This document shows, piece by piece, positions 11,531 through 53,460 of a stretch of DNA of 64,000 bases. The notes under the pieces are model-generated. The model worked only from the letters and a program-made list of their open reading frames with translations, was not told the DNA's origin and did not search any database. The DNA lies in sequence record CP132319.1, one strand, 5' to 3'. Within the stretch, counting starts at the first letter, position 1; each line of letters opens with the position of its first letter. The stretch is from a plasmid. Position numbers and translations under genes: made by a program.

Positions 11531-11767
11531 TCAGAATCCGAACATGCTGCCGACGCTTTGTGCATATCCGGCCAGCGTGTTGTAGAGGTCGATGCAATAT
11601 TCGGCGAACGGTTTGAAGAAGATGACGGCGCCGATGAAAAGCAGGACGCCGAGACCTCCGCCCTTCTTGGCCTCGGCGCGATCGTTGTCTGCCATCTCTT
11701 CGTTGAGACGGTTTTGCGCGTCCATGGCGGCGAAGCGCCGACGGTCATCTTGCCAAGGGTGATCCAC
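11531..11767 (-). CDS. small single-TM T4SS-associated protein (78 aa)
   Basis: Charged N-terminus then GGGLGVLLFIGAVIFF TM segment. Located immediately downstream of virB6. Confidence 0.45.
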   Translation of the reverse strand: MDHPWQDDRRRFAAMDAQNRLNEEMADNDRAEAKKGGGLGVLLFIGAVIFFKPFAEYCIDLYNTLAGYAQSVGSMFGF

Positions 11768-11822: not shown

Positions 11823-12842
11823 CTAAAGTTGCCCATTCTTTTCGGTTTCTCGCTGGATTGCGCGGGCTCGAGCTGCCTGAACATCCGTCGATGTGCGGCG
11901 ACGACCAAGGCCGGCACGCAGGAGCCGAGCGCGTCCGCTGACCTGGCGTTCAGCATAGGCGACCGAACGCCGGCCGCCGATAAAGGCGGAATCGCCTTGC
12001 CCCAAAACACTGCCTCCAACGATGGATGCGGCGAAGGAGGGGATGAAGCGAAAAACGACGATCCCGAGCAGGCAGACGATCACGAACGGAGCGACATAGG
12101 AGAGCTTGCTTTCCGTAGCGGTATTGTTGGCCGTGTTGATCGCCAGTTCGATGAGTTGGTAGAGGAAGGCGAGGAACGCCATCATCAAGGTCTGCGTCAC
12201 CATCAGGTTGACCATCAACAAGAGCCAGCCGTCGGTAAAGCGGAAGGTCCAGCGGTAGAGCGCCAGGATGATGAACACCGGCGCCAGTGCCAGGGTGATG
12301 AACAGCATCAGCTTGGCGGCGAGAATCGCGGCCGCTGCGACGGCGATGAAGATCATCGCGACGACAAAGACGATCGCACCGATCAGAGCGCCGACATATT
12401 CGAAGGTGCCGGTCGCCACCTGCTCGTAAATCTTACCTGCGGTCTCAAAGACGGCGTCTAGGATCTTCACCACGCCCGTCGTGTCGCCCGTGCCGCCATC
12501 GAGCGCCCCACCCGAGCCAGCGATCGACTCGATGATCGTGTCGGAAATCAGATTGGGGACCTCCTGGACGAGCTTGTAGAGCGTGGCGGAAAATGCCCCC
12601 CAGTTCGTCGCCATATAGTAGATGAAGAATGCGCGGCCGAGCCGCCAGGCCGCCTCCGGCACGGAGAAACCGTCGCGGCCGGCGAGGATCATATAGCCCC
12701 ACCAGAGAACGTAAAGCGTCAGCATCGACCCGAACAGGACATTCACCTGTAGCGCGAGACCGTCATAGGCGTTCTTGATAAACGTCTCGCCGATGGCGTC
12801 GAGCTTGGAAAAAATGTCCGAGATGATCGTGGTCGCCGCCAT
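11823..12842 (-). CDS. virB6: T4SS inner-membrane protein VirB6/TrbL
   Basis: 339 aa polytopic membrane protein with VirB6-like hydrophobic core and a Gly/Arg-rich C-terminal tail. Confidence 0.8.
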   Translation of the reverse strand: MAATTIISDIFSKLDAIGETFIKNAYDGLALQVNVLFGSMLTLYVLWWGYMILAGRDGFSVPEAAWRLGRAFFIYYMATNWGAFSATLYKLVQEVPNLISDTIIESIAGSGGALDGGTGDTTGVVKILDAVFETAGKIYEQVATGTFEYVGALIGAIVFVVAMIFIAVAAAAILAAKLMLFITLALAPVFIILALYRWTFRFTDGWLLLMVNLMVTQTLMMAFLAFLYQLIELAINTANNTATESKLSYVAPFVIVCLLGIVVFRFIPSFAASIVGGSVLGQGDSAFIGGRRSVAYAERQVSGRARLLRAGLGRRRTSTDVQAARARAIQRETEKNGQL

Positions 12843-12846
12843 TCGC

Positions 12847-13020
12847 CTATTCCTTCAGGACGGGGGCGAAGACGTCGTTGACCGGCATGGCCGGACCGCA
12901 CAGGTCATCGGCCTCGGCATATCCCGAGATCGGCGGGCAGGGGGCCTTCTTCTCACCTTTCGTCTGGCAACCGACGAGCAGGGCGAGACCGGAAAGCATG
13001 ATGGCAACGGGCATTCTCAT
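12847..13020 (-). CDS. virB7: VirB7-like lipoprotein (57 aa)
   Basis: Not in the ORF track (<60 aa). Minus-strand ATG at 13018-13020 gives MRMPVAIMLSGLALLVGCQTKGEKKAPCPP... with lipobox LLVGC. Lies between virB5 and virB6. Confidence 0.6.
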   Translation of the reverse strand: MRMPVAIMLSGLALLVGCQTKGEKKAPCPPISGYAEADDLCGPAMPVNDVFAPVLKE

Positions 13021-13026
13021 GCGGCC

Positions 13027-13743
13027 TCACTTGAACGGGTTGACGTCTTTGTATTGCAGCATCTTGGCTGTCTCCGACTGCTGGGTCAGCCGCATCTGCA
13101 TTTCGGTGTTCAGAGCCGAGACCGCGCCGTTCGAGACGCCGATCAACTCGTTGATGGTGCGCGCCGTCTCCAGCTGCATGCGGGTGTTGGCGTCGACCGA
13201 ACCCTTCACATCTTCGGCCGAGCCGATCTGGCCGGTGGCCGACTGCAACGACTGCTCGCGCTGCGACACGCCTTTGGTTGCCTGCTGCGTCAGCGCCGAG
13301 AGCAGCGCCACCGTATTGACGGCGCCGGAAAAGGCATTGTTCATCGCCCCGGCATCCTCGCCTTCGACGATCGCCTTGACCTGTTTCACCAGCTGCAGGC
13401 CGTTGATCAGCGTCGCCGCGATATTCTGCGCGCCTGAGCCAAGTCCACCGAACGACAGCGTGCCGCCGTTCATAATCGAGCTGAATGACGGTGCGGCCGA
13501 GACCGACATGTTGCCGCCGAGGCCGGTCGAGGAAATCCCCATCGAGCCGTCGCGACTACCGGAGAGCGCGCCGAGGATCTCCTTGGTCTTTTCGAGGATG
13601 TTGGTGTTGGTCTTCATGATCTCGCCGGTGTTTTCCGCGTTCTTCCTGGCGATCGCGAGATTGGTGTTATCGATCACCGGTATGTCGGCGAGCGCCGGCG
13701 TCGAGAAGGCGAGGGCGGCGGAGACGATGAGCAGCTTGTTCAT
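13027..13743 (-). CDS. virB5: T4SS minor pilin/adhesin VirB5
   Basis: 238 aa, signal peptide ...ALADIPVIDNTN, alpha-helical VirB5/TraC-like body, C-terminal ...SETAKMLQYKDVNPFK. Confidence 0.75.
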   Translation of the reverse strand: MNKLLIVSAALAFSTPALADIPVIDNTNLAIARKNAENTGEIMKTNTNILEKTKEILGALSGSRDGSMGISSTGLGGNMSVSAAPSFSSIMNGGTLSFGGLGSGAQNIAATLINGLQLVKQVKAIVEGEDAGAMNNAFSGAVNTVALLSALTQQATKGVSQREQSLQSATGQIGSAEDVKGSVDANTRMQLETARTINELIGVSNGAVSALNTEMQMRLTQQSETAKMLQYKDVNPFK

Positions 13744-13753
13744 GGGAACCCCC

Positions 13754-14917
13754 TTAATCGGCCGCGTTGGCGGCGTTCTGGATGGATAGAAGATTGTTGC
13801 CGATCGAGCGGTCCGTACCGCCGGACGAGAGAATTTCTGTATCGGCGTCGGCGGCCGCGACCACCGCGCAGCGCGGCCAGTCCTCGCGCGGCACCTTCAT
13901 CTCTTCGAGGATGACCCGGTCGCAGCTGTAGGGATTGACCTTGGCGTCGGATTTGAGGGTCTTGGCCGTCTCGGACGTTTTCGACAGATTCATCTGCATG
14001 CGCGCCTGCAGCAGTTCGTTGAACAGGTTGCGGGCGGTGATCAAGTTGTTGAGCAGCTCGGCATTGACGGCGCGAGCCTGCGTGTTGTCGTCCCAGGCAT
14101 CCTGGTAGATCTCCGACGCGCCGACCGAGGCCGACAGCGCATCGATGCGACGGCCCGCCTCCTGGACGCGTGCGGTGCTTGCGTCGATCCCCGAAACGGC
14201 ACGGTCGACCGCGCCGGCCGCCGCTCTGTTGGAACTGCGGGTCGCTCCGGAACCGTAATCGACATAGGATTTATAGGACGGCGAGGAGATGTCCTCGATG
14301 TTCGAGCCGCCGGCGAATGAATTAAACCAGCCATGGTTCCGGCCGACCTTGCCGGCCCAATTCTTCTGCTCCGCCGCCGTCGAGCCGTTATACCAGGACG
14401 CGAGGCAGGCATAGTCGGTGCTGCCGCACTTGTTGACGCCCATGCCGAGGTATTTGACGCCGCCCTCGATATTCTCCTCGTTGATGTCTCGGTCGAAGCC
14501 CATGCCTTTGCCGGTCCGCTTCGTCAGCTGCATCACGCCCTTCACGCCGGTCGGCGAGCCCGAGCAGGTCGAGATGCCGGATTCCGCATGCGCAACGGCC
14601 AAAGCAAGGCCAACCGGAACATTGTACTTTTCCGCATAATGCTTGATCAATTCAACGTTCTTGGCATCCTCCTTCACCGCCTGCGCCGGCGAACGGTAGA
14701 GACGGCGGTTCTTTTCCTTCTGGGAGATGTTGCAGTTCGTCACCGTTTGCTCTTCGAGCTGGTCGGATTGTGTTTCGGTGTCCTGCTTGGAATGTCCTTC
14801 ATCCTCCGCCCGCTTTTCCTTCACATCGTCGTCGATGACCGGAATGTCGGCGAATGCCGCTGGCGCCGGTGCGGTGACGAGCGCGGCAGAAAGCAGGAGC
14901 AGGATCGTTCTACGCAT
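13754..14917 (-). CDS. VirB5-like protein with an embedded SLT lytic-transglycosylase domain
   Basis: Start at the internal ATG (MRRTILLLLSAALVTAPAPAAFADIPVIDDD, same post-signal ADIPVID motif as VirB5). The middle carries ...AHAESGISTCSGSPTGVKGVMQL (SLT catalytic Glu/ES motif). The C-terminus ARMQMNLSKTSETAKTLKSDAKVNPY parallels the VirB5 C-terminus EMQMRLTQQSETAKMLQYKDVNPF. Confidence 0.7.
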   Translation of the reverse strand: MRRTILLLLSAALVTAPAPAAFADIPVIDDDVKEKRAEDEGHSKQDTETQSDQLEEQTVTNCNISQKEKNRRLYRSPAQAVKEDAKNVELIKHYAEKYNVPVGLALAVAHAESGISTCSGSPTGVKGVMQLTKRTGKGMGFDRDINEENIEGGVKYLGMGVNKCGSTDYACLASWYNGSTAAEQKNWAGKVGRNHGWFNSFAGGSNIEDISSPSYKSYVDYGSGATRSSNRAAAGAVDRAVSGIDASTARVQEAGRRIDALSASVGASEIYQDAWDDNTQARAVNAELLNNLITARNLFNELLQARMQMNLSKTSETAKTLKSDAKVNPYSCDRVILEEMKVPREDWPRCAVVAAADADTEILSSGGTDRSIGNNLLSIQNAANAAD

Positions 14918-17321
14918 CGGCCGCCTCCGGAATGGTCCAGCCACAGAAATGAGGGAGCCACGCGGCCGGCTCGTCGCCATAGGTCTCGCGCAGCGTCTGG
15001 CACTCGCGCACCGTCTCCGGCCGCCCGGACAAGACCTTCACCAGGTCGGGCATCGCCGATAGATCGAGCCGCGCGATCACCGAGTCCTGGGCGTGCTTGA
15101 TGAGGAAGGTGCGGCTCGTCTTGTCTGCCTGCTTCACGAAGCGGAATTCCTTTTCCGACAGGCCGAACGCCTTGCGGTAGCTCTCCTCGTCGGCCGACGC
15201 ATTCGGGAAGAAGATGTTGGTCATCGTCTGTTCGATGATCGTGTTGCGCAGGTCGGAACGCACCACGTCGGCGGCCGACTGTGTGCCGAAGCCGACTATG
15301 CCGTTCATCTTGCGGATCGTCTTCAGCCAATCCTTGATGAAGCCGGAGAAGACCTCGTCATCGAGCAGGCGCCAGCCTTCGTCGAGGAAGATCATCGAGG
15401 GGCGGCCGTCGAGGATCTCCTGAATACGATGGAACATATAGAGGAGCGCCGCCGAGCGCGTGCGCTTGTCGGACAGGATCTCAGTCATGTCGAAGCCGAT
15501 CACCGAGCCGGCAAAATCCAGCCTGTCGGTCGGGTTGTTGAACAGCCAGCCCTTGTCGCCCGTCGTCCATTCCTTCAGCCGGTCGGCGAGATCGCCAATG
15601 CCGGATCGCATCCTGCCGCGAAGCGCTTCCGCCAGCATGTCGAGACGCCGCTGTGGTCGTTCGAAATCGGTGTAGATGCTGTCGACCGCATCGGAGATGA
15701 CCGCCATCTCCTCGGCATTCAGCACCCGGTCCGACGGTGTGACAAGATAAGAGACCAGCGTCTTGCCGAAGCTGCGGTTGGCGGGCGTGTCTTCAAGCTG
15801 CAGCGGCGCAAAGCCGGTCGGCTCGCCCGGCGAAAGTCGCTCATAACGCCCGCCCATAGCGCGCACGAAGATCTCGCCACCGCGATCCTTGTCGATGAAG
15901 ACGCAGCGCGGCCGCGGGTTAACGCGCATGCCCTGGGCGAGAAGGAAGGAAAGCGCCACCGTCTTGCCCGAGCCGGTCGGGCCGATGACGGTGAAGTTGC
16001 CGACATCTGCCTCATGGAAATTGAAGAAATAGGCGGTCTGGCTGGTAGTCTCCAGCAGCGAGATCGGCAGGCCCCAATGGACCTTTTGCGTCTGCCCGGA
16101 CGGAAAATTGTGCGCGGAGAAGAGGCCGGCGAAGTTGACCGACGAGATTAACCCCTGCCGGGCAATGTAGGAAAAGTTGGTCGGCAGTTGCGCCCACCAG
16201 GCCGCTTCCTGATTGAGGTCTTCGCGCACGGCGACCACACCCATGCGCGCCAGCTCCGCCGTGACGTCTGCGACGGCGCGGTTGAGCCGCGGCAGGTCGC
16301 GCTCAAGCACCGCCACCGTCATGTGATGTTTGCCGAACACCACTTCGCCCGAGGCCAGCCGGTCGCGCGCCGTTTCGATATCGTCTTCGACCGCCGTGCC
16401 GCCATCGTCGGAATTCGAAATTTGCCGGCTGATGGTGGCGATCGCCTCCGTGACCGTCGTCCGGTCCTCCGGGGCGAAGGAATGGGTGACGATGAACTCG
16501 TAGGGCAGGCGCAGCAGCCCATCGAGCTGGCCGGGCGTCGTCATCGGCGGATATTCCTTGATCGACACCATGGCGGCGACCTTGGAGGTCGCGCCATCCG
16601 CCGACCAGATTTCCGTGGCCTTGCGACCAAACATGATCCGGCCGGTCCCGACATAATCGGCGAGCGACATGCGGGGCAGGGGCATCGTCCGCTCGTCGCC
16701 GGCGGCGAGGATCTTGGCGAAGAACTCGGCCGGCTCGGAATAGAGGCCGCCATCGCGGCTGACGCAGGAAAGGATTTCCGGGCGGTAGGAGCGGAAATCG
16801 CCGACAATGCCCGAGACCATGTCCTTCAGGTCGCGCAGCGCCTCGCCGCGGGCTTCGACCTCGTTGTCGGCCATGCGGAAGACATCGAACATCCGGTCGA
16901 CCTTGCCGGCGCGGCCAGTCATCGGCCGGCGGATGACCGTCAGGTATAGTTCGTTGACGAACATCGTCCGGTGCTGCAGCCCATCCATGTAGCGGGCGTT
17001 CAGCTCATCTGCGAAGGGATTGTCGAATTCACCGTCAATTGCCGGCTTGATCTGCCGGCGGATGATCGTGGCATAGAGCGCAAAGCGTGACGATCCGAGG
17101 GAGCGGACCGTCATGTTGCGGTTGGCGAGGCGAGCATTGATCTCCGCCTGATCCATCGTTTGATAGGGCAGGCCAGAGAGACGGATGACCTGTAGCAGCA
17201 GGCCGGACTTGGTGACGATCGTCTCCTCGTCGACATGGCGCAGATAGGGGACGTGCGTGCCGATCCCCAGGTCGCGAGCGCGTTCCCGGCCGAACTTCAG
17301 GTCGTGATTGACGATGTTCAT
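14910..17321 (-). CDS. virB4: T4SS ATPase VirB4
   Basis: Start at internal ATG MNIVNHDLKF (ATGA overlap with the virB3 stop). CagE/TrbE/VirB4 domain with Walker A GPTGSGKT. Confidence 0.9.
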   Translation of the reverse strand: MNIVNHDLKFGRERARDLGIGTHVPYLRHVDEETIVTKSGLLLQVIRLSGLPYQTMDQAEINARLANRNMTVRSLGSSRFALYATIIRRQIKPAIDGEFDNPFADELNARYMDGLQHRTMFVNELYLTVIRRPMTGRAGKVDRMFDVFRMADNEVEARGEALRDLKDMVSGIVGDFRSYRPEILSCVSRDGGLYSEPAEFFAKILAAGDERTMPLPRMSLADYVGTGRIMFGRKATEIWSADGATSKVAAMVSIKEYPPMTTPGQLDGLLRLPYEFIVTHSFAPEDRTTVTEAIATISRQISNSDDGGTAVEDDIETARDRLASGEVVFGKHHMTVAVLERDLPRLNRAVADVTAELARMGVVAVREDLNQEAAWWAQLPTNFSYIARQGLISSVNFAGLFSAHNFPSGQTQKVHWGLPISLLETTSQTAYFFNFHEADVGNFTVIGPTGSGKTVALSFLLAQGMRVNPRPRCVFIDKDRGGEIFVRAMGGRYERLSPGEPTGFAPLQLEDTPANRSFGKTLVSYLVTPSDRVLNAEEMAVISDAVDSIYTDFERPQRRLDMLAEALRGRMRSGIGDLADRLKEWTTGDKGWLFNNPTDRLDFAGSVIGFDMTEILSDKRTRSAALLYMFHRIQEILDGRPSMIFLDEGWRLLDDEVFSGFIKDWLKTIRKMNGIVGFGTQSAADVVRSDLRNTIIEQTMTNIFFPNASADEESYRKAFGLSEKEFRFVKQADKTSRTFLIKHAQDSVIARLDLSAMPDLVKVLSGRPETVRECQTLRETYGDEPAAWLPHFCGWTIPEAADA

Positions 17322-17617
17322 GGGGCGTAGCTCCCCGCTTTCCAGAAGCGCCGGTTGCGGATCGCCCGCCGCATCGACAGGAACACCTGCGCCACGCGGA
17401 CGATGTGGATGTCCCGCTGGCACAGGTACAGGGCGATGAAATGGACGGGCAGGACGATCAGCGGCGCCAGGAAATTCGACGACGCGATGAAGACGACGAT
17501 CCCGAAAATGCCGTTCACCACGAACACGATGATGTCGACCCCGAAATACATCGGCGGCTTGGTCAGCGGCTGGATGAGAGGTTCGACATCGGGAGCGTCG
17601 TCACGCATGTCAGACAC
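17318..17617 (-). CDS. virB3: T4SS protein VirB3
   Basis: 99 aa, two TM helices, VirB3-like. Confidence 0.8.
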   Translation of the reverse strand: MSDMRDDAPDVEPLIQPLTKPPMYFGVDIIVFVVNGIFGIVVFIASSNFLAPLIVLPVHFIALYLCQRDIHIVRVAQVFLSMRRAIRNRRFWKAGSYAP

Positions 17618-17933
17618 CCCCGGCCGCCTTCATGGCGTCGACCAGTTCGGCGGCGCCGAAGATGATCGCGATGCCGATGACGATGGAGATCGCGCCCTGC
17701 CAGGCCATGCGTCCGGTCAGGAACAGGAAGCCGAGGAAGCAGACGGCGATGATCGCGAGCGACCGGGCGACGCTGCCCTGCAGGACGCCGGTGAACCATT
17801 CGAGGATGCCTTCGACCGGCGCGGCCGATTGCGCATAGGCCAATTCCGGGACCAGCGCGATGGAAGTCGCAAGGACCGCCAGCGACAGGAGGGCCTTGCC
17901 GGGGAGGCGCGGCGTCATCGTGGAAATGCTCAT
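17610..17933 (-). CDS. virB2: T4SS pilin VirB2
   Basis: 107 aa, long signal peptide then two hydrophobic helices (TrbC/VirB2 pilin architecture). Confidence 0.75.
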   Translation of the reverse strand: MSISTMTPRLPGKALLSLAVLATSIALVPELAYAQSAAPVEGILEWFTGVLQGSVARSLAIIAVCFLGFLFLTGRMAWQGAISIVIGIAIIFGAAELVDAMKAAGGV

Positions 17934-17981
17934 TCGAAAGTCCTTCTGATCTTGGGAGGTTGAGGTTGGAGGGAACCAGCG

Positions 17982-18542
17982 CTAGTCGGCGGTCCAGACG
18001 TGTTGGTCGCGCCAGGGGGAGGGCGCGAGCGCAACCGTCTCCGTGCGGGCGTCGTTATTCCCGCGGCGCTTTTCCTCGGCCGCCGACGCCTTGGCGTTCA
18101 GCGTCCAGCGGTTCATCACCTTGACGATGTACTGGGCTGTCTCGTTGAACTCAGGGATGCCGCCCTTCTGGTAGACGCGCTCCGGTCCGGCGTTGTAGGC
18201 GGCCAGCATCAGCAGGGGATCGTCGAACTCGCCGTAGAGCTTCTTGAGGTAGCGAACGCCGGCGCGGATGTTCGATTCCGGATCGCAGCGGTCGGTCACG
18301 CCATAGTCGGAGGCGGTCTCGGGCATCAGCTGCATGATGCCGATGGCGCCGGCATCGGAGACCTGGTGCCTGCCGCCGGCGCTCTCGACATCAACCACCG
18401 CGAGCGCCAGATCGGGGTCCAGTTCTTCCTCGGTGGCGATGGTCCGAACCAGTTCCATTACGCGCTCGCTATCGACAGATTCGCACGCTTGCGCGGTCAT
18501 AGCCGACGTCGAGAGGAGGAGAAAAATCAGGGTGGTTTTCAA
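17982..18542 (-). CDS. virB1: lytic transglycosylase VirB1
   Basis: 186 aa, signal peptide, SLT motif ...VESAGG...AIGIMQLMPETA... Confidence 0.8.
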   Translation of the reverse strand: MKTTLIFLLLSTSAMTAQACESVDSERVMELVRTIATEEELDPDLALAVVDVESAGGRHQVSDAGAIGIMQLMPETASDYGVTDRCDPESNIRAGVRYLKKLYGEFDDPLLMLAAYNAGPERVYQKGGIPEFNETAQYIVKVMNRWTLNAKASAAEEKRRGNNDARTETVALAPSPWRDQHVWTAD

Positions 18543-18586: not shown

Positions 18587-18630
18587 TTCCTATGGGATTC
18601 CCCTGTCAATTCGGAAATGGCATGGCTGCT

Positions 18631-19251
18631 ATGCGACAACAACTCAAAGTAATCGGGTTCGCCCTCATATCCCTGGCGGGAGACGCCACCGCAGTCACCA
18701 TGGCGCAGGGCGAAAATCCCTACGGCGAGCCGCCTCCGGGATACCTCCGCCAATTTGTGGAGCAGGGGGCGAAGGCATTCGTGCTGGAGCGTTTCGACGC
18801 CGAGGGAAACCTGGTGGCCAGGTCGGTTGAGAAGCTGAATGAGAGCGTCGAGATCGACGGCCCGGTCGAGCGAAGTATCGCGGGGCAAAGAATCAGTTTG
18901 CGTGGGCTGACCGCCTGCCCAACCGAAAACGTCGTTTATAATCGCGTACAGACATGGCGTTGCACCGACGCGGCGCGCGACTACGCCGAGACGGTCTATA
19001 ACAGGCGTGCCAAGGTCATTCTCTGCAAGACCCTGGTGCTGACCCCGGCTGAAAACGAGGCGATCCCTGCGTCATGCTTCGTCCTCGTTGGTGGCGACGG
19101 GGAGCCCTTCAAGACGGTCAATGACGACGACAGCATGGTGTTTCTCGGACTGGCGTCCATTGGACGAACACAGGATGGGCGCAGCCGTAGGCCTGACCTC
19201 GAAGCGTCGCAATCTCTCTCACGATCGATGGGGTTCCAGAATGCGGACTGA
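18631..19251 (+). CDS. secreted thermonuclease-like (SNase-fold) protein, paralogue 1
   Basis: Signal peptide MRQQLKVIGFALISLAGDATA. Cys pattern and segment order parallel to the downstream paralogue. Start position uncertain (18622/18631). Confidence 0.5.
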   Translation: MRQQLKVIGFALISLAGDATAVTMAQGENPYGEPPPGYLRQFVEQGAKAFVLERFDAEGNLVARSVEKLNESVEIDGPVERSIAGQRISLRGLTACPTENVVYNRVQTWRCTDAARDYAETVYNRRAKVILCKTLVLTPAENEAIPASCFVLVGGDGEPFKTVNDDDSMVFLGLASIGRTQDGRSRRPDLEASQSLSRSMGFQNAD

Positions 19252-19750
19252 GTTTTCGATGGCCATCGCCATGCTGGTCGCGTTCGCAGCCGTTGCGCAG
19301 GACAAGACCATCTCATTTCCGTCTAACGTAAGCTTTGAGACGGGCGATACCTGGGCTTACGAAGGCCGGAAATACAGGGTTTTCGGGGTTCAGTCATGTC
19401 TGCGCGGCACGACTTTTCGTTCCTCTGATGGTGACGAGGTCGACTGCGGGATGCGTTCGATCGCATCGATAGCAGCGCTGTTCTCGACGGGTTCGATCGG
19501 TTGTCAGCCTGTCGGCAACGCCAAGGATGGCGCCACGTTCGTCGTCTGCGCAGCCGAGATCGATGAGATGACGGTCGATGTCGGAACGGCGCTCATATCG
19601 TCGGGCGGGGCATTTGCGGCCGTGTTCCCTTCTGGCGCGCCGGTATCGGCATCCTACGCGATCGCGGAGAAAGCCGCCAAAGACAGCCGCGCCGGCCTAT
19701 GGGCGGGGCGCTTCGTTCATCCCGTCTCCCTGCTTCTGGGCGAGCAATGA
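19241..19750 (+). CDS. nuc: secreted thermonuclease/SNase-like nuclease (plasmid nuc-type)
   Basis: Signal peptide MRTEFSMAIAMLVAFAAVAQ. C-terminal ...YAIAEKAAKDSRAGLWAG typical of staphylococcal-nuclease homologues. Confidence 0.65.
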   Translation: MRTEFSMAIAMLVAFAAVAQDKTISFPSNVSFETGDTWAYEGRKYRVFGVQSCLRGTTFRSSDGDEVDCGMRSIASIAALFSTGSIGCQPVGNAKDGATFVVCAAEIDEMTVDVGTALISSGGAFAAVFPSGAPVSASYAIAEKAAKDSRAGLWAGRFVHPVSLLLGEQ

Positions 19751-19957
19751 CCAGACCTCCGAAAGATCGATGTGAAGGCATTCCGTAATCATGGCGACTT
19801 CCCGCAGGGTCATGAGCTGCCATGCGCCTTCCTGCAGAAGCTCCAATCGCTCTTCAGCAATGCCGGTCAGTTCGGCAAATTCATGAGGTTTGGTGTCGCG
19901 GCGCCTTAATTCGTCTGCGAGGAATTGCACAAGCTCTACAGCACTTTCACTGGCCAT
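19697..19957 (-). CDS. XRE-family HTH transcriptional regulator (86 aa)
   Basis: HTH segment ...HEFAELTGIAEERLELLQEG.... Confidence 0.55.
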   Translation of the reverse strand: MASESAVELVQFLADELRRRDTKPHEFAELTGIAEERLELLQEGAWQLMTLREVAMITECLHIDLSEVWSLLAQKQGDGMNEAPRP

Positions 19958-20412: not shown

Positions 20413-21219
20413 ATGCTTGTTGCATCACCAGCGGCCTACGGGCCGAACCTATTGTCGCGCCTACTCGCCGCGCGCACCCTCCAGCAGATTGACGACTGCG
20501 CGAAATCCGCCTGGATACTGAATGGGGAGGGGCTCGTAGACGACCGCGAGATGGCATATCTAGCCCCGGTCATCGAGCATCAGCGGCGCGCGATCCGCGC
20601 GCAACCTTGGCGTCTGGGCGATCCGATTGGTCATCTAAGACCGACGACGGCCAAGCCGGTTCACCGACGCCCGTCAATTCCCGCAGACAGGCGAGCTGCA
20701 TCCTGGGTGCGCCGCCGCTCGCTCGCCAAAAACTGCATCATCCCGACTTGCATCGCCGGAAGGTTGACAATCAGCAAGCTTGCCGTGCTTTCGGTCATTG
20801 CCCGAGCGGTGATGGACCGTGGAAGATCGAATATGTCTCTCCCTGAGATCGCCGCACGCGCTGGCGTCGGATGCACAACAGCGCGGTATGCCATTCGGGA
20901 TGCCTTGCGAATGGGGCTGATCAGCGTGTCCGAGAACCGGATCAACGGATTTTGGAGCCGCCCCAACACGATCAGGATCGTCTGTGGTCGTTGGCTTCGA
21001 TGGCTGAAGGAGCATGCAGGGTTTTCGCCACGGAGAAAATCGGACGACGGAATTGCTGTCGATTGCGTCGGCACCCCCCTCAGAAATCTGATCCCCACGA
21101 TTGAAATTATTTCATTCTCGCTGCGAGGCGCGGTTCATCATCGATGGGGAGCGCGTGCAAATGTGCCTTACTGGCGCGGGGATACATGCCTTGATAGGGG
21201 AGTGAGGGCTTTGGAATAG
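20413..21219 (+). CDS. winged-helix DNA-binding protein (plasmid replication/regulator-like)
   Basis: 268 aa. HTH-like ...MSLPEIAARAGVGCTTARYAIRDALRMGLISVSENR.... No confident family assignment. Confidence 0.45.
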   Translation: MLVASPAAYGPNLLSRLLAARTLQQIDDCAKSAWILNGEGLVDDREMAYLAPVIEHQRRAIRAQPWRLGDPIGHLRPTTAKPVHRRPSIPADRRAASWVRRRSLAKNCIIPTCIAGRLTISKLAVLSVIARAVMDRGRSNMSLPEIAARAGVGCTTARYAIRDALRMGLISVSENRINGFWSRPNTIRIVCGRWLRWLKEHAGFSPRRKSDDGIAVDCVGTPLRNLIPTIEIISFSLRGAVHHRWGARANVPYWRGDTCLDRGVRALE

Positions 21220-27237: not shown

Positions 27238-27416
27238 ATATCCAGAATATCGGATATGTTTTCGATGTCAAGACGAATCCGGGCCTCGACGTCCGGCGGA
27301 TAAAGGTCGAGAACGGCTGCTACGAGGTCTATGCGATCGATGCCAAGGGCGCCAAGGTCGAGACGATCTTCAATCCGCAGACCGGTGAACCGGTCGGCTC
27401 GGAAGGAGCGGAATGA
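27228..27416 (+). pseudogene. 5'-truncated PepSY-like small periplasmic protein fragment
   Basis: Open frame with no start codon: ...DVKTNPGLDVRRIKVENGCYEVYAIDAKGAKVETIFNPQTGEPV*. Begins exactly where arsR (start 27237) abuts. Confidence 0.3.
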
Positions 27417-27967
27417 TGGCGCCACTCTCCCGAACCAGCGGGGCGGGGGAAAGCGTCAAGGTGTGGGACCCGCTCGTGCGGGTCTTTCACTGGTCGCTTG
27501 TCTGCCTCTTCGTTTTTTCCTTCGTTACCGGCGACGAATGGAAGAAGGCTCATATCCTCTCCGGCTATGCCATCGCAGGGCTGATCGCCCTGCGCCTGGT
27601 CTGGGGGCTGCTCGGGCCGCATCACGCCCGCTTCGCCAACTTCCTCTATTCTCCTCCGACGATCCTAGCGTTCCTCCGTGACAGCCTCGCCTTCCGCGCC
27701 AAGCGGTATCTCGGCCACAATCCGGCGGGGGGCGCGATGGTCGTCCTGCTGCTCGTTGCGGTGTCCGGTATCGTGACCACCGGCTACATGATGACCACGG
27801 ATGCCTATTGGGGTGTCGGCTGCGTGGAGGATACGCATAAGCTCCTGGTCTATTCGACCATCGGGCTGATTGCCCTGCACATCGCCGGCGTCGTCTTCGC
27901 CAGCGTCGAGCACCGGGAAAACCTCGTGCGCGCCATGGTGACGGGAAGGAAGCGCCGCGAAGGTTGA
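27413..27967 (+). CDS. cytochrome b561 family protein
   Basis: 184 aa, 4 TM helices with conserved His (FHWSL... HILSGY... IALH). Confidence 0.7.
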   Translation: MMAPLSRTSGAGESVKVWDPLVRVFHWSLVCLFVFSFVTGDEWKKAHILSGYAIAGLIALRLVWGLLGPHHARFANFLYSPPTILAFLRDSLAFRAKRYLGHNPAGGAMVVLLLVAVSGIVTTGYMMTTDAYWGVGCVEDTHKLLVYSTIGLIALHIAGVVFASVEHRENLVRAMVTGRKRREG

Positions 27968-28064: not shown

Positions 28065-28760
28065 ATGCGCGCCGTTCACAAGGAAAGCCACCTCATCGAA
28101 CGTATCGGCTGGCTCCGCGCGGCGGTGCTGGGCGCCAATGACGGGCTGATCTCGACGTCGAGCCTCATCGTCGGTGTCGCGGCGGCGACCGCGGCATCGC
28201 AGGAAATCCTCGTCGCCGGTGTCGCCGGTTTGGTGGCCGGCGCGATGTCGATGGCGGCGGGGGAATATGTCTCCGTCAGCTCGCAAGCCGATACGGAACA
28301 GGCCGACATGGCGCGCGAGCGCCACGAGCTGGCCACCCAGCCGGAGGCGGAGCTGGCCGAGCTTACCGCGATCTACGAGCAGCGTGGCGTCTCACCGGAT
28401 CTTGCCCGCCAGGTTGCCGAACAAATGATGGTGAAGGACGCCTTCGAAGCCCATGCACGGGACGAACTCGGCCTGTCGAGCCACGTAATGGCGCGGCCTG
28501 TCCAGGCGGCGCTGACATCGGCGGTGACCTTCGCGACGGGCGCGGCCCTGCCGCTGGCGGTCGCCCTGCTGGCGCCGTCGGGAACGGTCGTCTGGGCTGT
28601 GTCCGTTGCCTGTCTCATCGGGCTTGCCGTCCTCGGCGCGATCGGCGCGCGTGCCGGTGGTGCTGGCATCTGGAAGCCGACCGTCCGGGTCGTCTTCTGG
28701 GGCGCGGTCGCCATGGCGTCGACCGCAGCCATCGGCGCGCTTGTCGGCCGGGCGGTCTGA
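28065..28760 (+). CDS. VIT1/CCC1-family iron/manganese exporter
   Basis: 231 aa. GANDGLISTSSLIVG motif and C-terminal TM bundle typical of the VIT family. Confidence 0.8.
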   Translation: MRAVHKESHLIERIGWLRAAVLGANDGLISTSSLIVGVAAATAASQEILVAGVAGLVAGAMSMAAGEYVSVSSQADTEQADMARERHELATQPEAELAELTAIYEQRGVSPDLARQVAEQMMVKDAFEAHARDELGLSSHVMARPVQAALTSAVTFATGAALPLAVALLAPSGTVVWAVSVACLIGLAVLGAIGARAGGAGIWKPTVRVVFWGAVAMASTAAIGALVGRAV

Positions 28761-44156: not shown

Positions 44157-44165
44157 ATATGGTGA

Positions 44166-47879: not shown

Positions 47880-47890
47880 GTTCTGGATAC

Positions 47891-47935
47891 GTTCTCAAAA
47901 GTCGGACAGATTCACCACTTCCGTGTCGTGACGCC
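47891..47935. repeat. right terminal inverted repeat (IR-R) of the Tn3-family element
   Basis: Reverse complement GGCGTCACGACACGGAAGTGGTGAATCTGTCCGACTTTTGAGAAC. Confidence 0.8.
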
Positions 47936-48181: not shown

Positions 48182-48594
48182 TGCCCTTTCTGTTGCACAG
48201 CGAGCTTACAACAAGGAGCTGCATGTTCCTACCGCCGTAGAGATAGGCCGGCGCCAATTCCTGTGGGGCGAAAGCTGCCGCCGGAAAGAGGGCAGAATGG
48301 CGTTTGCCGCTGTTGAAGGCGTCAACTTGCCCTTTTTTCGCCCTATCCGGGTGAACCGTGAGCCAGACCCCTTCTAAGTCCTATTGCTCTACTGCCGCTT
48401 CGCCCTTTTCAGGAATGTCCTGATTGACGATTCATGATTCTTTGGGTGATCCACGCTTCACCGGCTCCCCGAACGGCGGGACGGGCCAGGGGCGAACTTA
48501 AAGCCACCCCGGAGCGAAGCTGAGTTCGCCCCTACCAACCTTGCAAGTCGCGCCTAACCACCGGATATATAGGACATACACGAACGCAAGGAGC

Positions 48595-49095
48595 ATGCAG
48601 ATGGAAGAAACCGTAAAGGCTAAGTCGCCGGATGTCCAGGCGCTGAAGCAGAATGAAAAGAAGTGGACGCCGACGATGATGAAGGCCGGCTGGAGCGCCT
48701 TCCCGAACATCATCATCGAGAAGCAGCGGGCTCTGGGCTTGGATGCCATGGACATGAACATCCTGCTGCACCTGGTCCAGTATTGGTGGCTTGAGGAAAA
48801 CGTGCCGCATCCTTCCGTGGCGACCATTGCCGATGCGATCGGCGTGACCCCGCGCGCAATCCAGAAGCGCATCACCGCGCTGCAGGCAGCGGGGCTGATC
48901 ACGCGCGAAGAGCGCCGGCACAGCAAGTTCGGAAGCCAGACGAACCTTTATCGCTTCGATGGCCTGATCAAGGCCTGCCTGCCGTTTGCAGAGGAGAAAA
49001 TCGCCGCAGCGAAGAAGAAGGCGGAAGACGAGAAGGATCGCGTCAAGCGCAAGAAGCCGAAGCTGGTGGTGAACAACGACGCGCCGAGCGTCTAG
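48595..49095 (+). CDS. winged-helix DNA-binding protein with Lys-rich C-terminal tail
   Basis: ...NILLHLVQYWWLEENVPHPSVATIADAIGVTPRAIQKRITALQAAGLITRE... then ...AAKKKAEDEKDRVKRKKPKL. Confidence 0.5.
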   Translation: MQMEETVKAKSPDVQALKQNEKKWTPTMMKAGWSAFPNIIIEKQRALGLDAMDMNILLHLVQYWWLEENVPHPSVATIADAIGVTPRAIQKRITALQAAGLITREERRHSKFGSQTNLYRFDGLIKACLPFAEEKIAAAKKKAEDEKDRVKRKKPKLVVNNDAPSV

Positions 49096-49140: not shown

Positions 49141-49902
49141 ATGGGACAGGCGGTACAGATTGTGTCAGTTTGGAAAAGCAATGCCCCGGGCGCTTGCATG
49201 CAGAGGCGCTACCGGGGCTCACGAGAACAACATGGAATAGATAAGAGAGATTTTCAAGTGGTTTTTCCCTATACGCCCGCAAATATTGCGAACCTGGAGT
49301 CATCCCACTCCCCTGAACGGCTGGCACCGTACTATGCGCTCGCCGGCGGTGACAAGGAGCTGGGGCTCAAGCTGTACGCATGGAACAGTGCCCTGTCGCA
49401 AGCTTTGTACACGCCCTTGCAGGCGCTCGAGGTGACGCTGCGCAACGGCATTGGGAGCCGGCTGCAGGCGACCTATGGCGCGCAGTGGTTTGACCTTAAC
49501 CCAGGCCCCGCCCTGCACTACCCCCTGCCCGACATGCTGTTGAAGGCGCGCACCGAACTCGGCAAGCGCGGCATCATGGCCGAGCATGGACGCATCGTGG
49601 CGGAGTTGACCTGGGGGTTCTGGACCGGCATTCTTGCCAAGCGTTACGAACCCTTATGGCGCTCGGATTTGCGCCATGTATTCCAGTCTGCCGGCCCCCT
49701 CACCCGTAATGCAGTGTTCATGCCGCTGGACGACCTGCGCCGGCTGCGCAACCGCATCGCCCACCACGAGCCGATCTTGAACCGGAACATTGCGGCCGAC
49801 CATGCCGCGATTCTTGACCTGATCCGGCTGATCTCGCCGACGTCGGCCGCCTGGGTCGATGATCAGAGCCAGGTCATGGCCGCGCTGGCAAACCGGCCGT
49901 AG
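49141..49902 (+). CDS. Abi-like (Abi_2 family, AbiD/AbiF-type) abortive-infection protein
   Basis: Conserved ...LRRLRNRIAHHEPI... (R-N-x3-H-H-E, hallmark of Abi_2). The start may be the internal ATG at 49198. Confidence 0.6.
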   Translation: MGQAVQIVSVWKSNAPGACMQRRYRGSREQHGIDKRDFQVVFPYTPANIANLESSHSPERLAPYYALAGGDKELGLKLYAWNSALSQALYTPLQALEVTLRNGIGSRLQATYGAQWFDLNPGPALHYPLPDMLLKARTELGKRGIMAEHGRIVAELTWGFWTGILAKRYEPLWRSDLRHVFQSAGPLTRNAVFMPLDDLRRLRNRIAHHEPILNRNIAADHAAILDLIRLISPTSAAWVDDQSQVMAALANRP

Positions 49903-50448: not shown

Positions 50449-50892
50449 CTATTTCTGCGGAGTGCAAATTAGAGGTCTTAACTCTTGCAGGGTGACTCCC
50501 GACTTCGGTGAGGACAATACACCAATCCAGTTGTCGGAAAATGTGCCCGCCGCATCGGCCGGTGAAAGCCAGATGACCTCATTGGTGTCGAGTTCGATTT
50601 TCACCTCGCTGCCGATAGGGCTGCCAGCGACGGTCTGCACATAGTGGCGCCTGATCGACTGGGTCTTTCCTTCTGGATCGACCACCTGGTTCTCGCGATA
50701 GGCTATCTGGATCTTGCCGCCCTGCCCGCTCGACACGCAATCGGTCGACCGCTCGCAGCGAATGACCGAGGAAAATGTGCAGGACCAGGTGAAGCCGCTT
50801 CGCCACATGGGATTATCAGCAGCCCATGCGGAAGGCGCCGTCAGCAGCAGCGCCGAGATCAGCCGATACTTCAAAATTCGCCATCCCCTCAA
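50449..50892 (-). CDS. secreted hypothetical protein (signal peptide, 147 aa)
   Basis: LISALLLTAPSAWAADN signal peptide. Confidence 0.45.
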   Translation of the reverse strand: MRGWRILKYRLISALLLTAPSAWAADNPMWRSGFTWSCTFSSVIRCERSTDCVSSGQGGKIQIAYRENQVVDPEGKTQSIRRHYVQTVAGSPIGSEVKIELDTNEVIWLSPADAAGTFSDNWIGVLSSPKSGVTLQELRPLICTPQK

Positions 50893-51004
50893 TTGGCTCG
50901 AACGTCAGGTTCGGCCGTGAACATGCAGGGATGACGATAAAATATAATTTTCGTTATGCGCAACGGAATCGTCGCGATGTCCGAAGTGAACGTATCCACA
51001 AAAC

Positions 51005-51271
51005 TCAACTGTCGTCCGATTTCATACCAAGCATTAGGTCTTGCAGAGGCACCTTCAGATTGGTGCTGATCCGCGTAATGACCTGAAGGGACGGGTTCGC
51101 CGTGGCGTCGAGAATCCTGAAATAGTAAGGCGTGGTAATCTCGCAAAGCTTCACCAGCTCCTTTTTCGTCAGGCCGCGCTTCTCCCGCTCACGCTCCATG
51201 ACGATCGCCATGTTTCGCAGGATCATCGTCCCAAGGTCTGTATCGGCCTTCTTGCGTTTACTCGGTGCCAT
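51005..51271 (-). CDS. XRE-family HTH repressor
   Basis: ...LTKKELVKLCEITTPYYFRILDATANPSLQVITRIS... HTH. A perfect palindrome lies 5 bp upstream of the start. Confidence 0.65.
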   Translation of the reverse strand: MAPSKRKKADTDLGTMILRNMAIVMEREREKRGLTKKELVKLCEITTPYYFRILDATANPSLQVITRISTNLKVPLQDLMLGMKSDDS

Positions 51272-51275
51272 AGGA

Positions 51276-51289
51276 TAAACTATAGTTTA
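51276..51289. promoter_or_regulatory. perfect 14-bp palindrome TAAACTATAGTTTA (candidate operator) between divergent genes
   Basis: Seen directly. Related copies at 18573, 11021, 11785 and 20171. Confidence 0.55.
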
Positions 51290-51296
51290 CTCGTTC

Positions 51297-51830
51297 GTGT
51301 TTTTGATGAGAGAGTTGCCAATGTCAGCCAAAGCCCCGCCTGCCAACGTCATCGCCGGAATCCTGCTGGCGGCCGTCGTGCTGCCCACGCCCGCTACAGC
51401 GAGCGAATGGGGCTGTGAGGTTCTGTTGTGTGCTTCGTCTTCCAACCCGTCCTGGAGGGGTGTACCGGCTTGCCATCCGCCGATGAACCGGCTGATCTCC
51501 GCGATGAAGAAACCGGGCTTCGACTGGCCGACCTGCCCGGAAGGCGGAACGGGAGAGCCGGGCTATCAGAGATATGCGGAGTGCCCGGAGGGCTATCAGG
51601 TCGGGAGCAGCAGGGACCGCAACGGCTTCGCCAGGGAAGGCGATCTGTGCGTCAAGACAGTCAACGTTTGCCAGGGCAATACGCACGGTCTCTATAACTC
51701 TGATCGGCAGCGGAGCTGCATACAAACGGTCTCCACGTCTCGACCGCTCAGGTCGGAGCCTTACTTCTTCGACATCAAGAATGACACTTCTGGCCAAACC
51801 GAGCGGCATTGGTTCGAGTTGCACAAATAA
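51297..51830 (+). CDS. secreted Cys-rich hypothetical protein
   Basis: Signal peptide ...VIAGILLAAVVLPTPATASE, then 10 Cys. Confidence 0.45.
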   Translation: MFLMRELPMSAKAPPANVIAGILLAAVVLPTPATASEWGCEVLLCASSSNPSWRGVPACHPPMNRLISAMKKPGFDWPTCPEGGTGEPGYQRYAECPEGYQVGSSRDRNGFAREGDLCVKTVNVCQGNTHGLYNSDRQRSCIQTVSTSRPLRSEPYFFDIKNDTSGQTERHWFELHK

Positions 51831-51863: not shown

Positions 51864-52181
51864 ATGCGGACTGTCAACCGTCACACCCTGCTCGGCCACG
51901 TCGGAAACATCATAAAGCTCAAGAATGTGCTAAAGGTGAACATCGCCACCAATCGCGAATGGCAGGCCGACGGCGATCGGAAAACCGCCACCGACTGGGC
52001 ACAGGTGACGATCCTCGACAAGAAGCAGGCCGAGTGGATCGAAGAAAATGTCGGGCCGGGCGATCTCGTCTATGTCGAGTCCCGGATCTCGAATTCCAGC
52101 TACGAACGCGATGGGGAACAGATTTATGCCTCCGACGTCATCGCGCAGCTCTTCAATCTCGTCTCGAAGAAGCCATCCTGA
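51864..52181 (+). CDS. ssb: single-stranded DNA-binding protein (plasmid SSB)
   Basis: 105 aa OB-fold: NRHTLLGHVGN...REWQADGDRKTATDWAQVTILD.... Confidence 0.75.
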   Translation: MRTVNRHTLLGHVGNIIKLKNVLKVNIATNREWQADGDRKTATDWAQVTILDKKQAEWIEENVGPGDLVYVESRISNSSYERDGEQIYASDVIAQLFNLVSKKPS

Positions 52182-52193: not shown

Positions 52194-52611
52194 GGCCACC
52201 GCCCGTTCCGGTCGGCCGCGCTCTATGCGAAGCACGAAGCCAGCCTTCGGCCGTCTCCGCCGATCCCGGTGACGATCGCTTGTCCAGTCGGTGGCTATGC
52301 CCCCGGCACTGGGGCCCGACCGGGCCGCATCTCTGTTTCCGCCCCATGACAGCGCCGGCCGTTCGGATCAAGGGGCAGGCGCGGCACAGCCGCTTGTCGC
52401 GCCGGCAAAAAAACGGCTTTCCGCCTGCGGCCGAACCTTCCGTTTTTTCCCGTCACGACCCCTTGACCCGCCCGGCCGTCGCCGCAGGGCGGGCTTTCGC
52501 CCTCCCCGCTCCGTCCGGGGGAATGTCAGAGGCCATTCCCCCGGAAAGACCGGGGAGGCTTCGCCCAAGGGGGCTTCCCCTTCGGGAAACGGGAAACCAA
52601 GGAGACAGACA
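52194..52611 (+). repeat. copy A of a ~420-bp structured non-coding repeat ending at the start codon of the DUF932 gene
   Basis: About 95% identical to 55625-56049 and 59492-59912. The three copies differ by 1-bp and 7-bp indels. Contains hairpins (e.g. GGGGGAATG-N8-CATTCCCCC) and the SD AAGGAG. Confidence 0.85.
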
Positions 52612-53460
52612 ATGAGCATCTACACCGAGACCGCCCGTTTCGACACCGGCCGCGCCCTGACCGAAACCGAAATGCGCCGCATCGCGCCGTCGATCTTTGC
52701 CGTGACCGCCCATGAGAGCCGGTCCGAGCGTTTCAAACCCATCCCGACCATCGAGGTGTTGCGCGGCCTCATGAACGAGGGTTTCATGCCGGTCGGCGCC
52801 AAGCAGTCCCGCAGCCGCACTGAAGGCAAGGCCGATTTCACCAAGCACCTCATTCGCATGCGCCGCGTCGATGACCGCAAGGTCTATAATGTCGGCGATA
52901 CCGTCTGCGAAATCCTCCTCAAAAACGCCAATGACGGAACCAGCGCCTACGAACTGATGGCCGGGCTCTTCCGCGTCCGCTGCCTCAATTCCTTGGTGAC
53001 GCAGACCGGCACCATCGACGCCATCAAGGTCCGCCATTCGGGCGACGTACAGCACAAGGTCATCGAGGGAACCTATCGCGTTCTCGGCGAGGCCGAACGC
53101 ACCCTTGCCGCTCCGCAGGATTGGTCGACCATGCGCATGAACCCCGAGGAAGCGAGAATTCTGGCGGATGCCGCCTATGTTCTCCGCTTCGGAGATAGCG
53201 AAGGCGAGACGGCCACGCCGATCAAGCCGGAGCAGTTGCTAATCCCGCGTCGCCATGACGACCGCGCAAACGATCTCTGGACGACGTGGAACGTGGTTCA
53301 GGAAAACGCCATCAAGGGCGGTTTGCGTGGCGTCGGCCGCGACGATCTCGGCAGGCCGCGCCGCGTCAAGTCCCGCGCTGTCAATGGTATCGATCAGGAT
53401 ATCAAGCTCAACAAGGCCCTGTGGCTGCTGGGAGAAAGGATGGCTGCGCTGAAGTCGTGA
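52612..53460 (+). CDS. DUF932 domain protein (plasmid leading-region family)
   Basis: MSIYTETARFDTGRALTETEMRRIAPSIFAVTAHESRSERFKPIPTIEVL.... Confidence 0.6.
   Translation: MSIYTETARFDTGRALTETEMRRIAPSIFAVTAHESRSERFKPIPTIEVLRGLMNEGFMPVGAKQSRSRTEGKADFTKHLIRMRRVDDRKVYNVGDTVCEILLKNANDGTSAYELMAGLFRVRCLNSLVTQTGTIDAIKVRHSGDVQHKVIEGTYRVLGEAERTLAAPQDWSTMRMNPEEARILADAAYVLRFGDSEGETATPIKPEQLLIPRRHDDRANDLWTTWNVVQENAIKGGLRGVGRDDLGRPRRVKSRAVNGIDQDIKLNKALWLLGERMAALKS

Follow-up and report, generated by a model that had tools for sequence, protein, structure and literature searches.

According to a 2026 comparative study (PMC13274422), the control of plasmid transfer in rhizobia is understood in detail only for the TraR (quorum-sensing) and RctA/RctB types; that study names no regulator for type IVb-like systems, and none was described for the present one in the literature searched. 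Here we analysed a 64,000-nucleotide stretch of the plasmid sequence record CP132319.1 (the window), in which the gene of a small XRE/Cro-C1-type regulator adjoins a perfect 14-bp palindrome, with variants at genes of a type IV secretion system (T4SS). The window belongs to a Shinella-type Rhizobiaceae plasmid with a G+C content of 61%, whose backbone is 98–99% identical to that of NZ_CP084755.1, its closest complete relative (102.9 kb); pShin-07 is another close relative. As judged from the arrangement and conservation of these sites, it is probable that an autoregulated dimer of the XRE protein covers the -10/start zone of the promoters concerned and represses transfer, partition and leading-region genes jointly.

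Among the described rhizobial systems, RctA of the type II plasmids pSymA and pRetCFN42d also represses a virB-type conjugative T4SS (PMC8628070; PMC13274422). It differs in being positively autoregulated and countered by the activator RctB, with RctR and RctC upstream (PMC13274422), and no rctA-type arrangement is annotated in the relatives of the window. TrbR, encoded in the transfer region of the R. leguminosarum plasmid pRleVF39b (type IVa), is an XRE-domain regulator that represses the trb genes and whose mutation raises transfer (PMC7449395; PMC9601222; PMC8628070). TrbR and the XRE protein would be alike as XRE-domain regulators of rhizobial plasmid transfer, whereas the mating-pair formation (Mpf) genes considered here are of the virB/virD4 type, combined with a mobC-relaxase DNA-processing (Dtr) module in a type IVb-like arrangement. 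A search with the XRE protein returned no R. leguminosarum plasmid among 32 matches at E <= 1e-5, nor among the best 60 of 370 at E <= 1, and no TrbR operator was reported in the literature searched, which excluded the primary TrbR papers. The plasmids pT173b and pT173c, members of the same backbone family as the window, were stated to "most closely resemble type IVb", with no regulator mentioned for them (PMC10306167), and the proteins of pT173b fell outside both type IV subgroups (PMC13274422).

Outside the rhizobia, TrbA of the IncP-1 plasmids RK2/RP4 regulates the trb (mating-pair formation) genes (PMC13584720). TrbA and KorA resemble the system proposed here as small plasmid helix-turn-helix (HTH) repressors with operators at several backbone promoters, co-ordinating transfer with core functions. 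They differ in having, at the C-terminus, a domain for dimerisation and for docking the KorB clamp, and by themselves they repress weakly, whereas the XRE protein, with 88 aa, ends after helix 5 (PMC13584720 for TrbA architecture). No KorB-type partner is evident for it, and the operator sequence is unrelated to those of TrbA and KorA. The XRE protein matched the NCBIfam TrbA model NF010465 with 28.5 bits, in the HTH region only, the equivalog cutoff being 96; a TrbA equivalog was therefore rejected on score and on the missing KorB-docking domain. The dimeric Cro/C1-type XRE regulators of phages, restriction-modification (R-M) systems and other elements (434 Cro, lambda cI, C.Esp1396I, CylR2, SinR, and ImmR of ICEBs1) resemble the XRE protein in their five-helix HTH_3 fold, in a palindromic operator that overlaps the promoter and in being autoregulated, the latter two being a candidate operator and a prediction for the XRE protein. 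Their identity to it is 14–33%, and single operators are spread here over at least eight promoters rather than clustered at one switch. Lambda cI itself has a basic N-terminal arm and is translated from a leaderless message made from PRM.

By analogy, the proposed circuit would work like the IncP-1 global repressors (KorA, TrbA) and would resemble TrbR. It would be a new case of a familiar type of plasmid control which, being expected in general terms, is useful rather than surprising to plasmid biologists. The analysis supplies this backbone family with a candidate repressor, a 16-bp operator of defined sequence and a regulon predicted to comprise eight promoters, which makes the question of what keeps such plasmids silent and lets them transfer directly testable.

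A symmetric element at backbone promoters

The window contains six sites of the palindrome family (Table 1), all six intergenic and near gene starts according to the lists of open reading frames (ORFs) and the annotation of the 98%-identical NZ_CP084755.1. The preliminary description had located the perfect copy at the XRE gene correctly and close to its start, although not at the distance of 5 bp that it gave, as four nt (51272–51275) separate TAAACTATAGTTTA from the A of the XRE ATG (51271). The four variants that it listed also exist, with coordinates accurate to within 1 nt. Those placed "inside" the T4SS operon do belong to the cluster, but lie between genes, in the gaps virB6/small ORF (site 11785, named like the others by its first position) and 123-aa ORF/virB8 (site 11020). 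That inventory of five missed a sixth site, 50938. It also overlooked that the element has a -10-like core and that the XRE mRNA is probably leaderless.

Each site is a word of A and T only, and in a replicon with 61% G+C such AT-rich words gather between genes, so that the likeness of the sites could be due to chance. Dinucleotide shuffles of the whole window gave 0.00 expected matches at <=2 mismatches versus 3 observed and, for the degenerate pattern, 0.05 expected versus 12 strand-hits at 6 places. Since this null ignores the intergenic clustering of AT-rich words, a stricter null of 5000 shuffles was built within the AT-rich islands, 65 in the window, one island at a time. Islands at <=3 mismatches from the palindrome then averaged 0.24 (maximum 4), and the 5 observed besides the seed were reached in none of the 5000. 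When each AT-rich 14-mer was taken as the seed, the palindrome family was the most repeated in the window. Moreover, the sites are kept at orthologous positions in plasmids ~83–98% identical over the T4SS region, though the flanks diverge. Chance is thus effectively refuted as an explanation, and a chance frequency of the motif, which the preliminary description named as one outcome that would overturn its proposal, is excluded.

From the window and 28 related loci together, 67 distinct sites were pooled, yielding the consensus R-TWAAnTATAnTTWA-Y, a two-fold symmetric element of 16 bp whose purine (R) and pyrimidine (Y) flanks, although outside the scoring matrix, are retained in 68 of 76 cases. 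In a matrix-independent test on 640 TATA cores from 661 kb of related loci, AA on the left and TT on the right occurred together at 76 cores, a single flank at 19 and 24, and neither at 521, which corresponds to an odds ratio of 87 for the coupling of the two flanks. This half-site coupling indicates an element that is two-fold symmetric, as for a dimeric protein, and more than a one-sided -10 context.

The core CTATAG/TATAGT of the element also matches a -10 hexamer, which raises the question of whether the sites merely reflect a strong promoter design, inherited or converged, with an AT-rich -10 box in AT-rich surroundings and no dedicated regulator. The variants TATAGT, TATAAT and CTATAG fit the sigma-70 -10 consensus, the rhizobial -10 sequence is CTATAT, and one site was called as a promoter -10. 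A -10 hexamer, however, leaves unexplained the invariant outer positions (A3 and A4 / T11 and T12, the T1/A14 ends and the R/Y flanks) and the coupling of the half-sites, and it does not explain why the best palindrome is always on the start of an HTH repressor gene. We therefore hold this explanation to be very improbable. A structured RNA was rejected as well, the Rfam scan of the window giving no match, as was a hairpin, the sites folding no better than shuffled sequences. A full-text literature search with six operator sequence variants returned nothing relevant.

The surroundings of the sites carry conserved promoter signals. Site 18573 lies 30 nt upstream of the TTG codon of virB1 (18542) and ~31–35 nt upstream of a divergent 219-aa gene; the first T4SS block is presumably transcribed from the virB1 promoter. 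Site 11785 follows the stop codon of virB6 by 24 nt and precedes the GTG of a 78-aa ORF (11531..11767) by 17 nt, and site 11020 is placed 34 nt upstream of the virB8 ATG (10985), at the head of the block virB8-virB9-virB10-virB11-virD4. Site 20171 falls within 455 nt of DNA that separate two divergent ORFs, one of 86 aa and HTH-like (19697..19957, minus), with HTH_37 and HTH_26 matches below threshold, the other of 268 aa (20413..21219, plus). Site 50938 stands 63 nt upstream of the TTG start (50874) of the 147-aa gene, which has a Shine-Dalgarno sequence, and 45 nt from the longest-ORF start (50892). The window stops a few kb before mobC and parA, both promoters lying just past its right end; the parA operator is found 19 nt upstream of parA and is itself preceded, at 16 nt, by a conserved hexamer TTGCGG/TTGCGA. 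The operators of the small gene (78-aa ORF) and of parA are followed, at a distance of 6–12 nt, by GGAG ribosome-binding sites that are also conserved. The conserved -35 hexamers, the ribosome-binding sites and the called promoter around them indicate that the operators occupy the -10/start zone of real promoters, and a protein bound there should block RNA polymerase.

A matrix census of NZ_CP084755.1 revealed exactly 8 sites scoring >=21.3, the next best (15.5) being low-complexity AT tracts. All eight are at backbone promoters, namely the six window positions together with mobC-relaxase and parA, giving as target units mobC-relaxase, parA, XRE/169-aa gene, 147-aa gene, virB1, the small gene after virB6, virB8 and the HTH/268-aa pair; no site was present in the ~55 kb of metal-resistance and transposon cargo of that plasmid. 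The multi-promoter pattern was seen in four further plasmids. The same 8 positions are occupied in an R. daejeonense plasmid (XRE 68% identical), whereas Ensifer canadensis pT173c (XRE 81% identical) and a Nitratireductor plasmid (Phyllobacteriaceae; XRE 76% identical) show 6 positions each in the portions covered. The spacings are almost constant: ~-31 for virB1 in pShin-07, pT173c and the R. daejeonense and Nitratireductor plasmids, -17/-18 for the small gene in four plasmids, and -34 for virB8 in four plasmids. A site orthologous to 20171 was found in pT173c and in the R. daejeonense and Nitratireductor plasmids.

The XRE protein as candidate repressor

The perfect palindrome is contained in the 49-nt gap between the ATG of the XRE gene (51271, minus) and that of the divergent 169-aa gene (51321, plus), 31 nt before the latter. 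A promoter scan of positions 50850–51400 made a single call, TTTACT-18-TATAGT, directed towards the 169-aa gene. On the other side, no Shine-Dalgarno sequence exists between the palindrome and the XRE ATG, which is located 7–10 nt past the TATAGT hexamer. The XRE mRNA is thus likely to be leaderless or near-leaderless, with its start predicted at the ATG or within 3 nt of it.

To the plasmid records we added twenty further XRE loci from a scan of one genome per species. In all 25 XRE orthologues with upstream sequence the palindrome lies 1–7 nt before the start codon, and a Shine-Dalgarno sequence is present in none. The majority-base frequency is 0.87 in the palindrome columns versus 0.53 in the 70 nt upstream (spacer and start of the divergent gene), where the ribosome-binding site of that gene is the exception to the low conservation. 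Most orthologous loci have a second site ~300–380 nt downstream of the XRE start, which is missing where the 147-aa gene is missing (loci L012 and L018, pMl4, pShin-03). The order 169-aa gene / operator / XRE / operator / 147-aa gene is invariant, and wherever a locus extends upstream of XRE, the 169-aa gene is linked to it. In pShin-03, an intact XRE gene and its own operator persist amid unrelated genes.

The domain matched PF01381 HTH_3 with 30.1 bits (cutoff 23) at residues 27–79. The AlphaFold2 model (pLDDT 83) shows a five-helix Cro/C1 fold (helices 11–32, 36–42, 47–54, 62–72 and 76–81), with a disordered basic N-terminal arm (SKRKK) and a disordered tail after helix 5 (residue 81). Foldseek returned C.BclI, C.AhdI, DdrO-NTD, SinR and 434 Cro at probability 1.00 with TM values of ~0.6–0.78, other structural neighbours being C.Esp1396I, CylR2 and ImmR. 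The nearest structures, that is, R-M controller proteins, DdrO-NTD, SinR, CylR2, 434 Cro and ImmR, are small dimeric palindrome binders. The family is narrow, consisting of 54 clusters that are 71–98% identical and bear only generic names. The N-terminal 20 residues are conserved across 27 homologues, and the arm SKRKKxDTDLGT is invariant in them, so the long form starting at the palindrome is the likely product. In the annotation by the Prokaryotic Genome Annotation Pipeline (PGAP), the protein appears as 68 aa from an internal Met in NZ_CP084755.1 (67646–67852) and NZ_CP015743.1 (84904–85110), and as 85–88 aa in other records.

The XRE protein is the only DNA-binding protein of the invariant module, both neighbours carrying signal peptides. 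In addition, the orthologues divide into two clades that differ at the recognition-helix residues F51L and R52Q; the same clades differ in the half-site, TAAA in clade A and TTAA in clade B, at the XRE gene's own and at other sites (28/8 versus 2/11, Fisher p = 1.3e-4). This co-variation of operator and recognition helix supports the XRE protein as the probable binder.

The operators might nevertheless be real and bound by another protein, the XRE gene being just one target. Such a binder could be a partition protein of the KorB/ParB-like or ParG-like kind (either the large ParB-domain protein or the 126-aa product encoded after parA), the 86-aa HTH-like protein beside site 20171, or a host AT-tract binder such as MucR/Ros. 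IncP KorB, a partition protein acting on single palindromes scattered over backbone promoters, provides a precedent (PMC13584720). A site does precede parA, the 86-aa ORF combines weak HTH matches with a nearby site, and all backbone proteins co-diverge with the operator type. The 86-aa protein, however, is missing from 7 complete plasmids with XRE; the one checked, pMl4, which also lacks the T4SS, keeps the XRE, parA and mobC-side sites. The ParA partner has no match in the Nitratireductor plasmid, with its 6 sites, nor in pShin-03. Presence and absence thus disfavour both as binders, although sister plasmids could supply either in trans. Furthermore, MucR-type AT-tract binding would not give a strict 16-bp consensus, and the perfect copy always adjoins the XRE start codon, the classic autoregulatory layout. 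On balance, we consider a different binder unlikely.

Alternatively, the XRE protein could bind these sites as an activator, or activate first and repress later, in the manner of the R-M C-proteins, which would time backbone expression after entry. Its top Foldseek matches include the controller proteins C.BclI, C.AhdI and C.Esp1396I, and most sites are without a good -35 sequence, as is often so in activator-dependent promoters. The sites overlap the -10/start region, however, instead of lying upstream of -35, the virB1 promoter has a perfect TTGACA and should need no activator, and there is a single site per promoter where paired C-boxes are typical of C-proteins. Activation appears quite unlikely on these grounds.

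Several observations weigh against repression by the XRE protein at these promoters. A canonical sigma-70 score was obtained at one site alone, with the plus-strand promoter at 51257–51286, so a canonical promoter at every site was rejected. The sites of virB8, the small 78-aa gene and the 147-aa gene have no evident -35 sequence, and may act as roadblocks or weak internal promoters, while the conserved -35 hexamers of virB1 and parA are 21–22 nt from the TATAGT core, which makes the exact -10 register uncertain. The clade co-variation reflects a single phylogenetic split across which every backbone protein also differs, and is therefore unspecific to XRE. Strains with an isolated XRE module also hold complete sister plasmids, a possible source of a trans-acting factor. 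Finally, of the distant XRE homologues (43–56% identity), the two examined, from S. meliloti pSINME02 and A. vitis pRvVAT039d (52–56%), have no AT-rich palindrome; as their genes appear to share a transcript with an ORF upstream, they count neither for nor against the proposal.

We infer the XRE protein as the binder, and repression as the sign of its action, from architecture and comparative data. In the proposed repressor circuit, the six window sites would be operators of one plasmid-wide regulon, and the 88-aa XRE protein would most likely bind the 16-bp element as a dimer through the recognition helix at residues 47–54 (TPYYFRIL), the basic arm SKRKK being available for extra contacts. 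Bound over the -10/start zone, it would exclude RNA polymerase and, at its own gene, exert negative autoregulation. Co-repressed with it would be the divergent leading-region genes (169-aa protein, ssb, DUF932), the 147-aa gene, three T4SS units (virB1-B6; the 78-aa and 123-aa ORFs; virB8-virD4), the 86-aa HTH/268-aa pair and, outside the window, mobC-relaxase and parA. When the plasmid enters a repressor-free cell, all these promoters would fire together and then shut, as in zygotic induction; operon boundaries and induction behaviour are what we infer from the sequence.

The coupling of T4SS expression with the leading region and a "defence block" through one repressor, as first put forward, is supported in part and is probably right in the main. 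The site family does link the XRE promoter, the T4SS and leading-region genes, and the idea is to be broadened to the relaxosome and parA promoters; the defence block is unsupported and has to be dropped, the weak Abi/HEPN-like ORF (49141..49902) lying on the other strand and without a site.

A more far-reaching version is possible, which we offer only tentatively. In it, the 16-bp element would be at once operator and palindromic bidirectional -10 box, so that one XRE dimer would gate paired promoters (XRE/169-aa gene; virB1/219-aa gene), the XRE mRNA would be leaderless, and the 88-aa protein would be the sole master switch of an unclassified type IVb-like rhizobial conjugation backbone, joining T4SS, relaxosome, partition and leading region in one zygotically induced regulon.

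Plasmid family and further features of the window

Table 1. Palindrome sites, promoter elements and genes in the window (coordinates are window positions)
Feature	Coordinates	Strand	Match to perfect palindrome	Remarks
XRE operator (O-xre), TAAACTATAGTTTA	51276-51289 (51275..51290 with R/Y flanks)		reference site	perfect 14-bp palindrome
Second operator (O2), TAAAATATAATTTT	50938-50951		11/14	between XRE stop codon and next gene
virB1-side operator, TAAACTATAGTTAA	18573-18586		13/14	
Operator after virB6, TAAATTATAGTTAC	11785-11798		11/14	
virB8-side operator, TTAAATATAGTTTA	11020-11033		12/14	
Operator of the 86-aa/268-aa divergent region, TAAATTATAATTAA	20171-20184		11/14	
Sigma-70-type promoter TTTACT-18-TATAGT	51257..51286	plus		predicted to drive 169-aa gene; -10 hexamer inside palindrome
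-35 hexamer TTGACA of virB1	18604..18609	minus		perfect; 17 nt upstream of operator; kept in 5/5 plasmids compared
XRE/Cro-C1-type regulator gene	51005..51271	minus		88 aa; ORF and Pfam HTH_3
169-aa signal-peptide protein gene	51321..51830	plus		leading-region-type
ssb	51864..52181	plus		Pfam SSB 2.3e-14
DUF932 protein gene	ORF up to 52291..53460	plus		true start probably later; DUF932 1.6e-36
147-aa signal-peptide protein gene	50449..50892	minus		141 aa by PGAP start; downstream of XRE, own operator
First T4SS block	11823..18542	minus		virB1, virB2, virB3, virB4, SLT transglycosylase, virB5-like, small ORF, virB6; NZ_CP084755.1 annotation and ORF list

Relaxase, T4SS and XRE are carried by essentially the same ~27 complete plasmids in PLSDB, which defines one coherent backbone family. 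Its hosts are Shinella, Sinorhizobium/Ensifer, Rhizobium and Nitratireductor, and many of its members bear metal-resistance, catabolic or symbiosis cargo. NZ_CP084755.1 was deposited as a plasmid of "Roseateles sp. XES5" (Betaproteobacteria) and carries the flag UNVERIFIED_ORG. A Rhizobiaceae origin is indicated by the repABC replicon that it contains and by its being almost identical to Shinella plasmids.

In the relatives, the gene order is like that of type IVb (pSmeLPU88b/pSmed03 type), with divergent parA and mobC-relaxase genes and a virB/virD4-type Mpf. Between the mobC-side operator and mobC there is an inverted repeat, GTCAAGTTTGT-GGT-ACAAACTCGAC, kept in three plasmids (NZ_CP084755.1, region ~9480–9515; loci L003 and L004), which is a candidate repeat of the origin of transfer (oriT). 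The two operators of the mobC/parA divergent region are ~320 bp apart and flank this repeat. Giusti et al. are said to have placed, in 2012, the oriT of pSmeLPU88b between parA and mobC. A tblastn search with the relaxase at E <= 1e-30 matched no S. meliloti plasmid, and membership of the relaxase in classical MobZ (type IVb; MOBP0) was not supported by this search.

S. medicae pMl4 (NZ_CP140919.1) has lost the whole T4SS and kept XRE, the leading region, repABC, parA, the relaxase and their operators; by its gene content, it represents a naturally "mobilisable-only" derivative with the predicted repressor circuit retained. This plasmid also bears TIR/SIR2 defence genes.

The 30 kb that separate the T4SS from XRE in the window are a cargo mosaic of arsenic, sulfur and other metal-related genes and a Tn3-family transposon, whose transposase and recombinase (~44100–47940) are 100% identical to those of the Shinella sumterensis plasmid CP132320.1. 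The T4SS and XRE modules are just 4–6 kb apart in pShin-07, Shinella WSC3-e and Nitratireductor plasmids.

Searches of Pfam and NCBIfam yielded no family for the 169-aa, 147-aa, 219-aa, 268-aa, 123-aa and 78-aa proteins. The 86-aa HTH-like ORF is convergent with a thermonuclease-like ORF (19088..19750), whose 3' end it overlaps, and is kept beside the 20171-type operator in T4SS-bearing relatives; its product may serve the system as a second regulator or as an anti-repressor. The 253-aa ORF at 49141–49902 (plus), with sub-threshold Abi_2 and Swt1-like HEPN matches, follows a 184-aa winged-helix ORF (HTH_36/DnaD_N; 48541..49095), and may be a defence gene. The sequence CGAATCTTAAAAATAGATTCGTTTT (58018–58042), with a 7-bp stem and a T-run like an intrinsic terminator, comes after DUF736-containing leading-region genes.

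Within the cargo DNA, sub-threshold matrix scores arose only from a low-complexity AT tract, TATAATATAATATATAAT (36952–37000), near which a separate 14-bp palindrome, TATGTTATAACATA, is found (37171–37184). In NZ_CP084755.1 the corresponding position immediately precedes the blh-bigR operon for sulfur detoxification, which makes it probable that this is the regulatory region of blh-bigR. A 31-bp perfect palindrome, GCATGTATTTAGAATTATTCTAAATACATGC (27986–28016), is flanked by two plus-strand ORFs, one cytochrome-b-like (27413..27967) and one of the VIT family (28065..28760). Its core TTTAGAA-N3-TTCTAAA fits the consensus of the Irr iron-control element of Rhizobiales, which would point to regulation by Irr of a cargo gene for an mbfA-like iron exporter.

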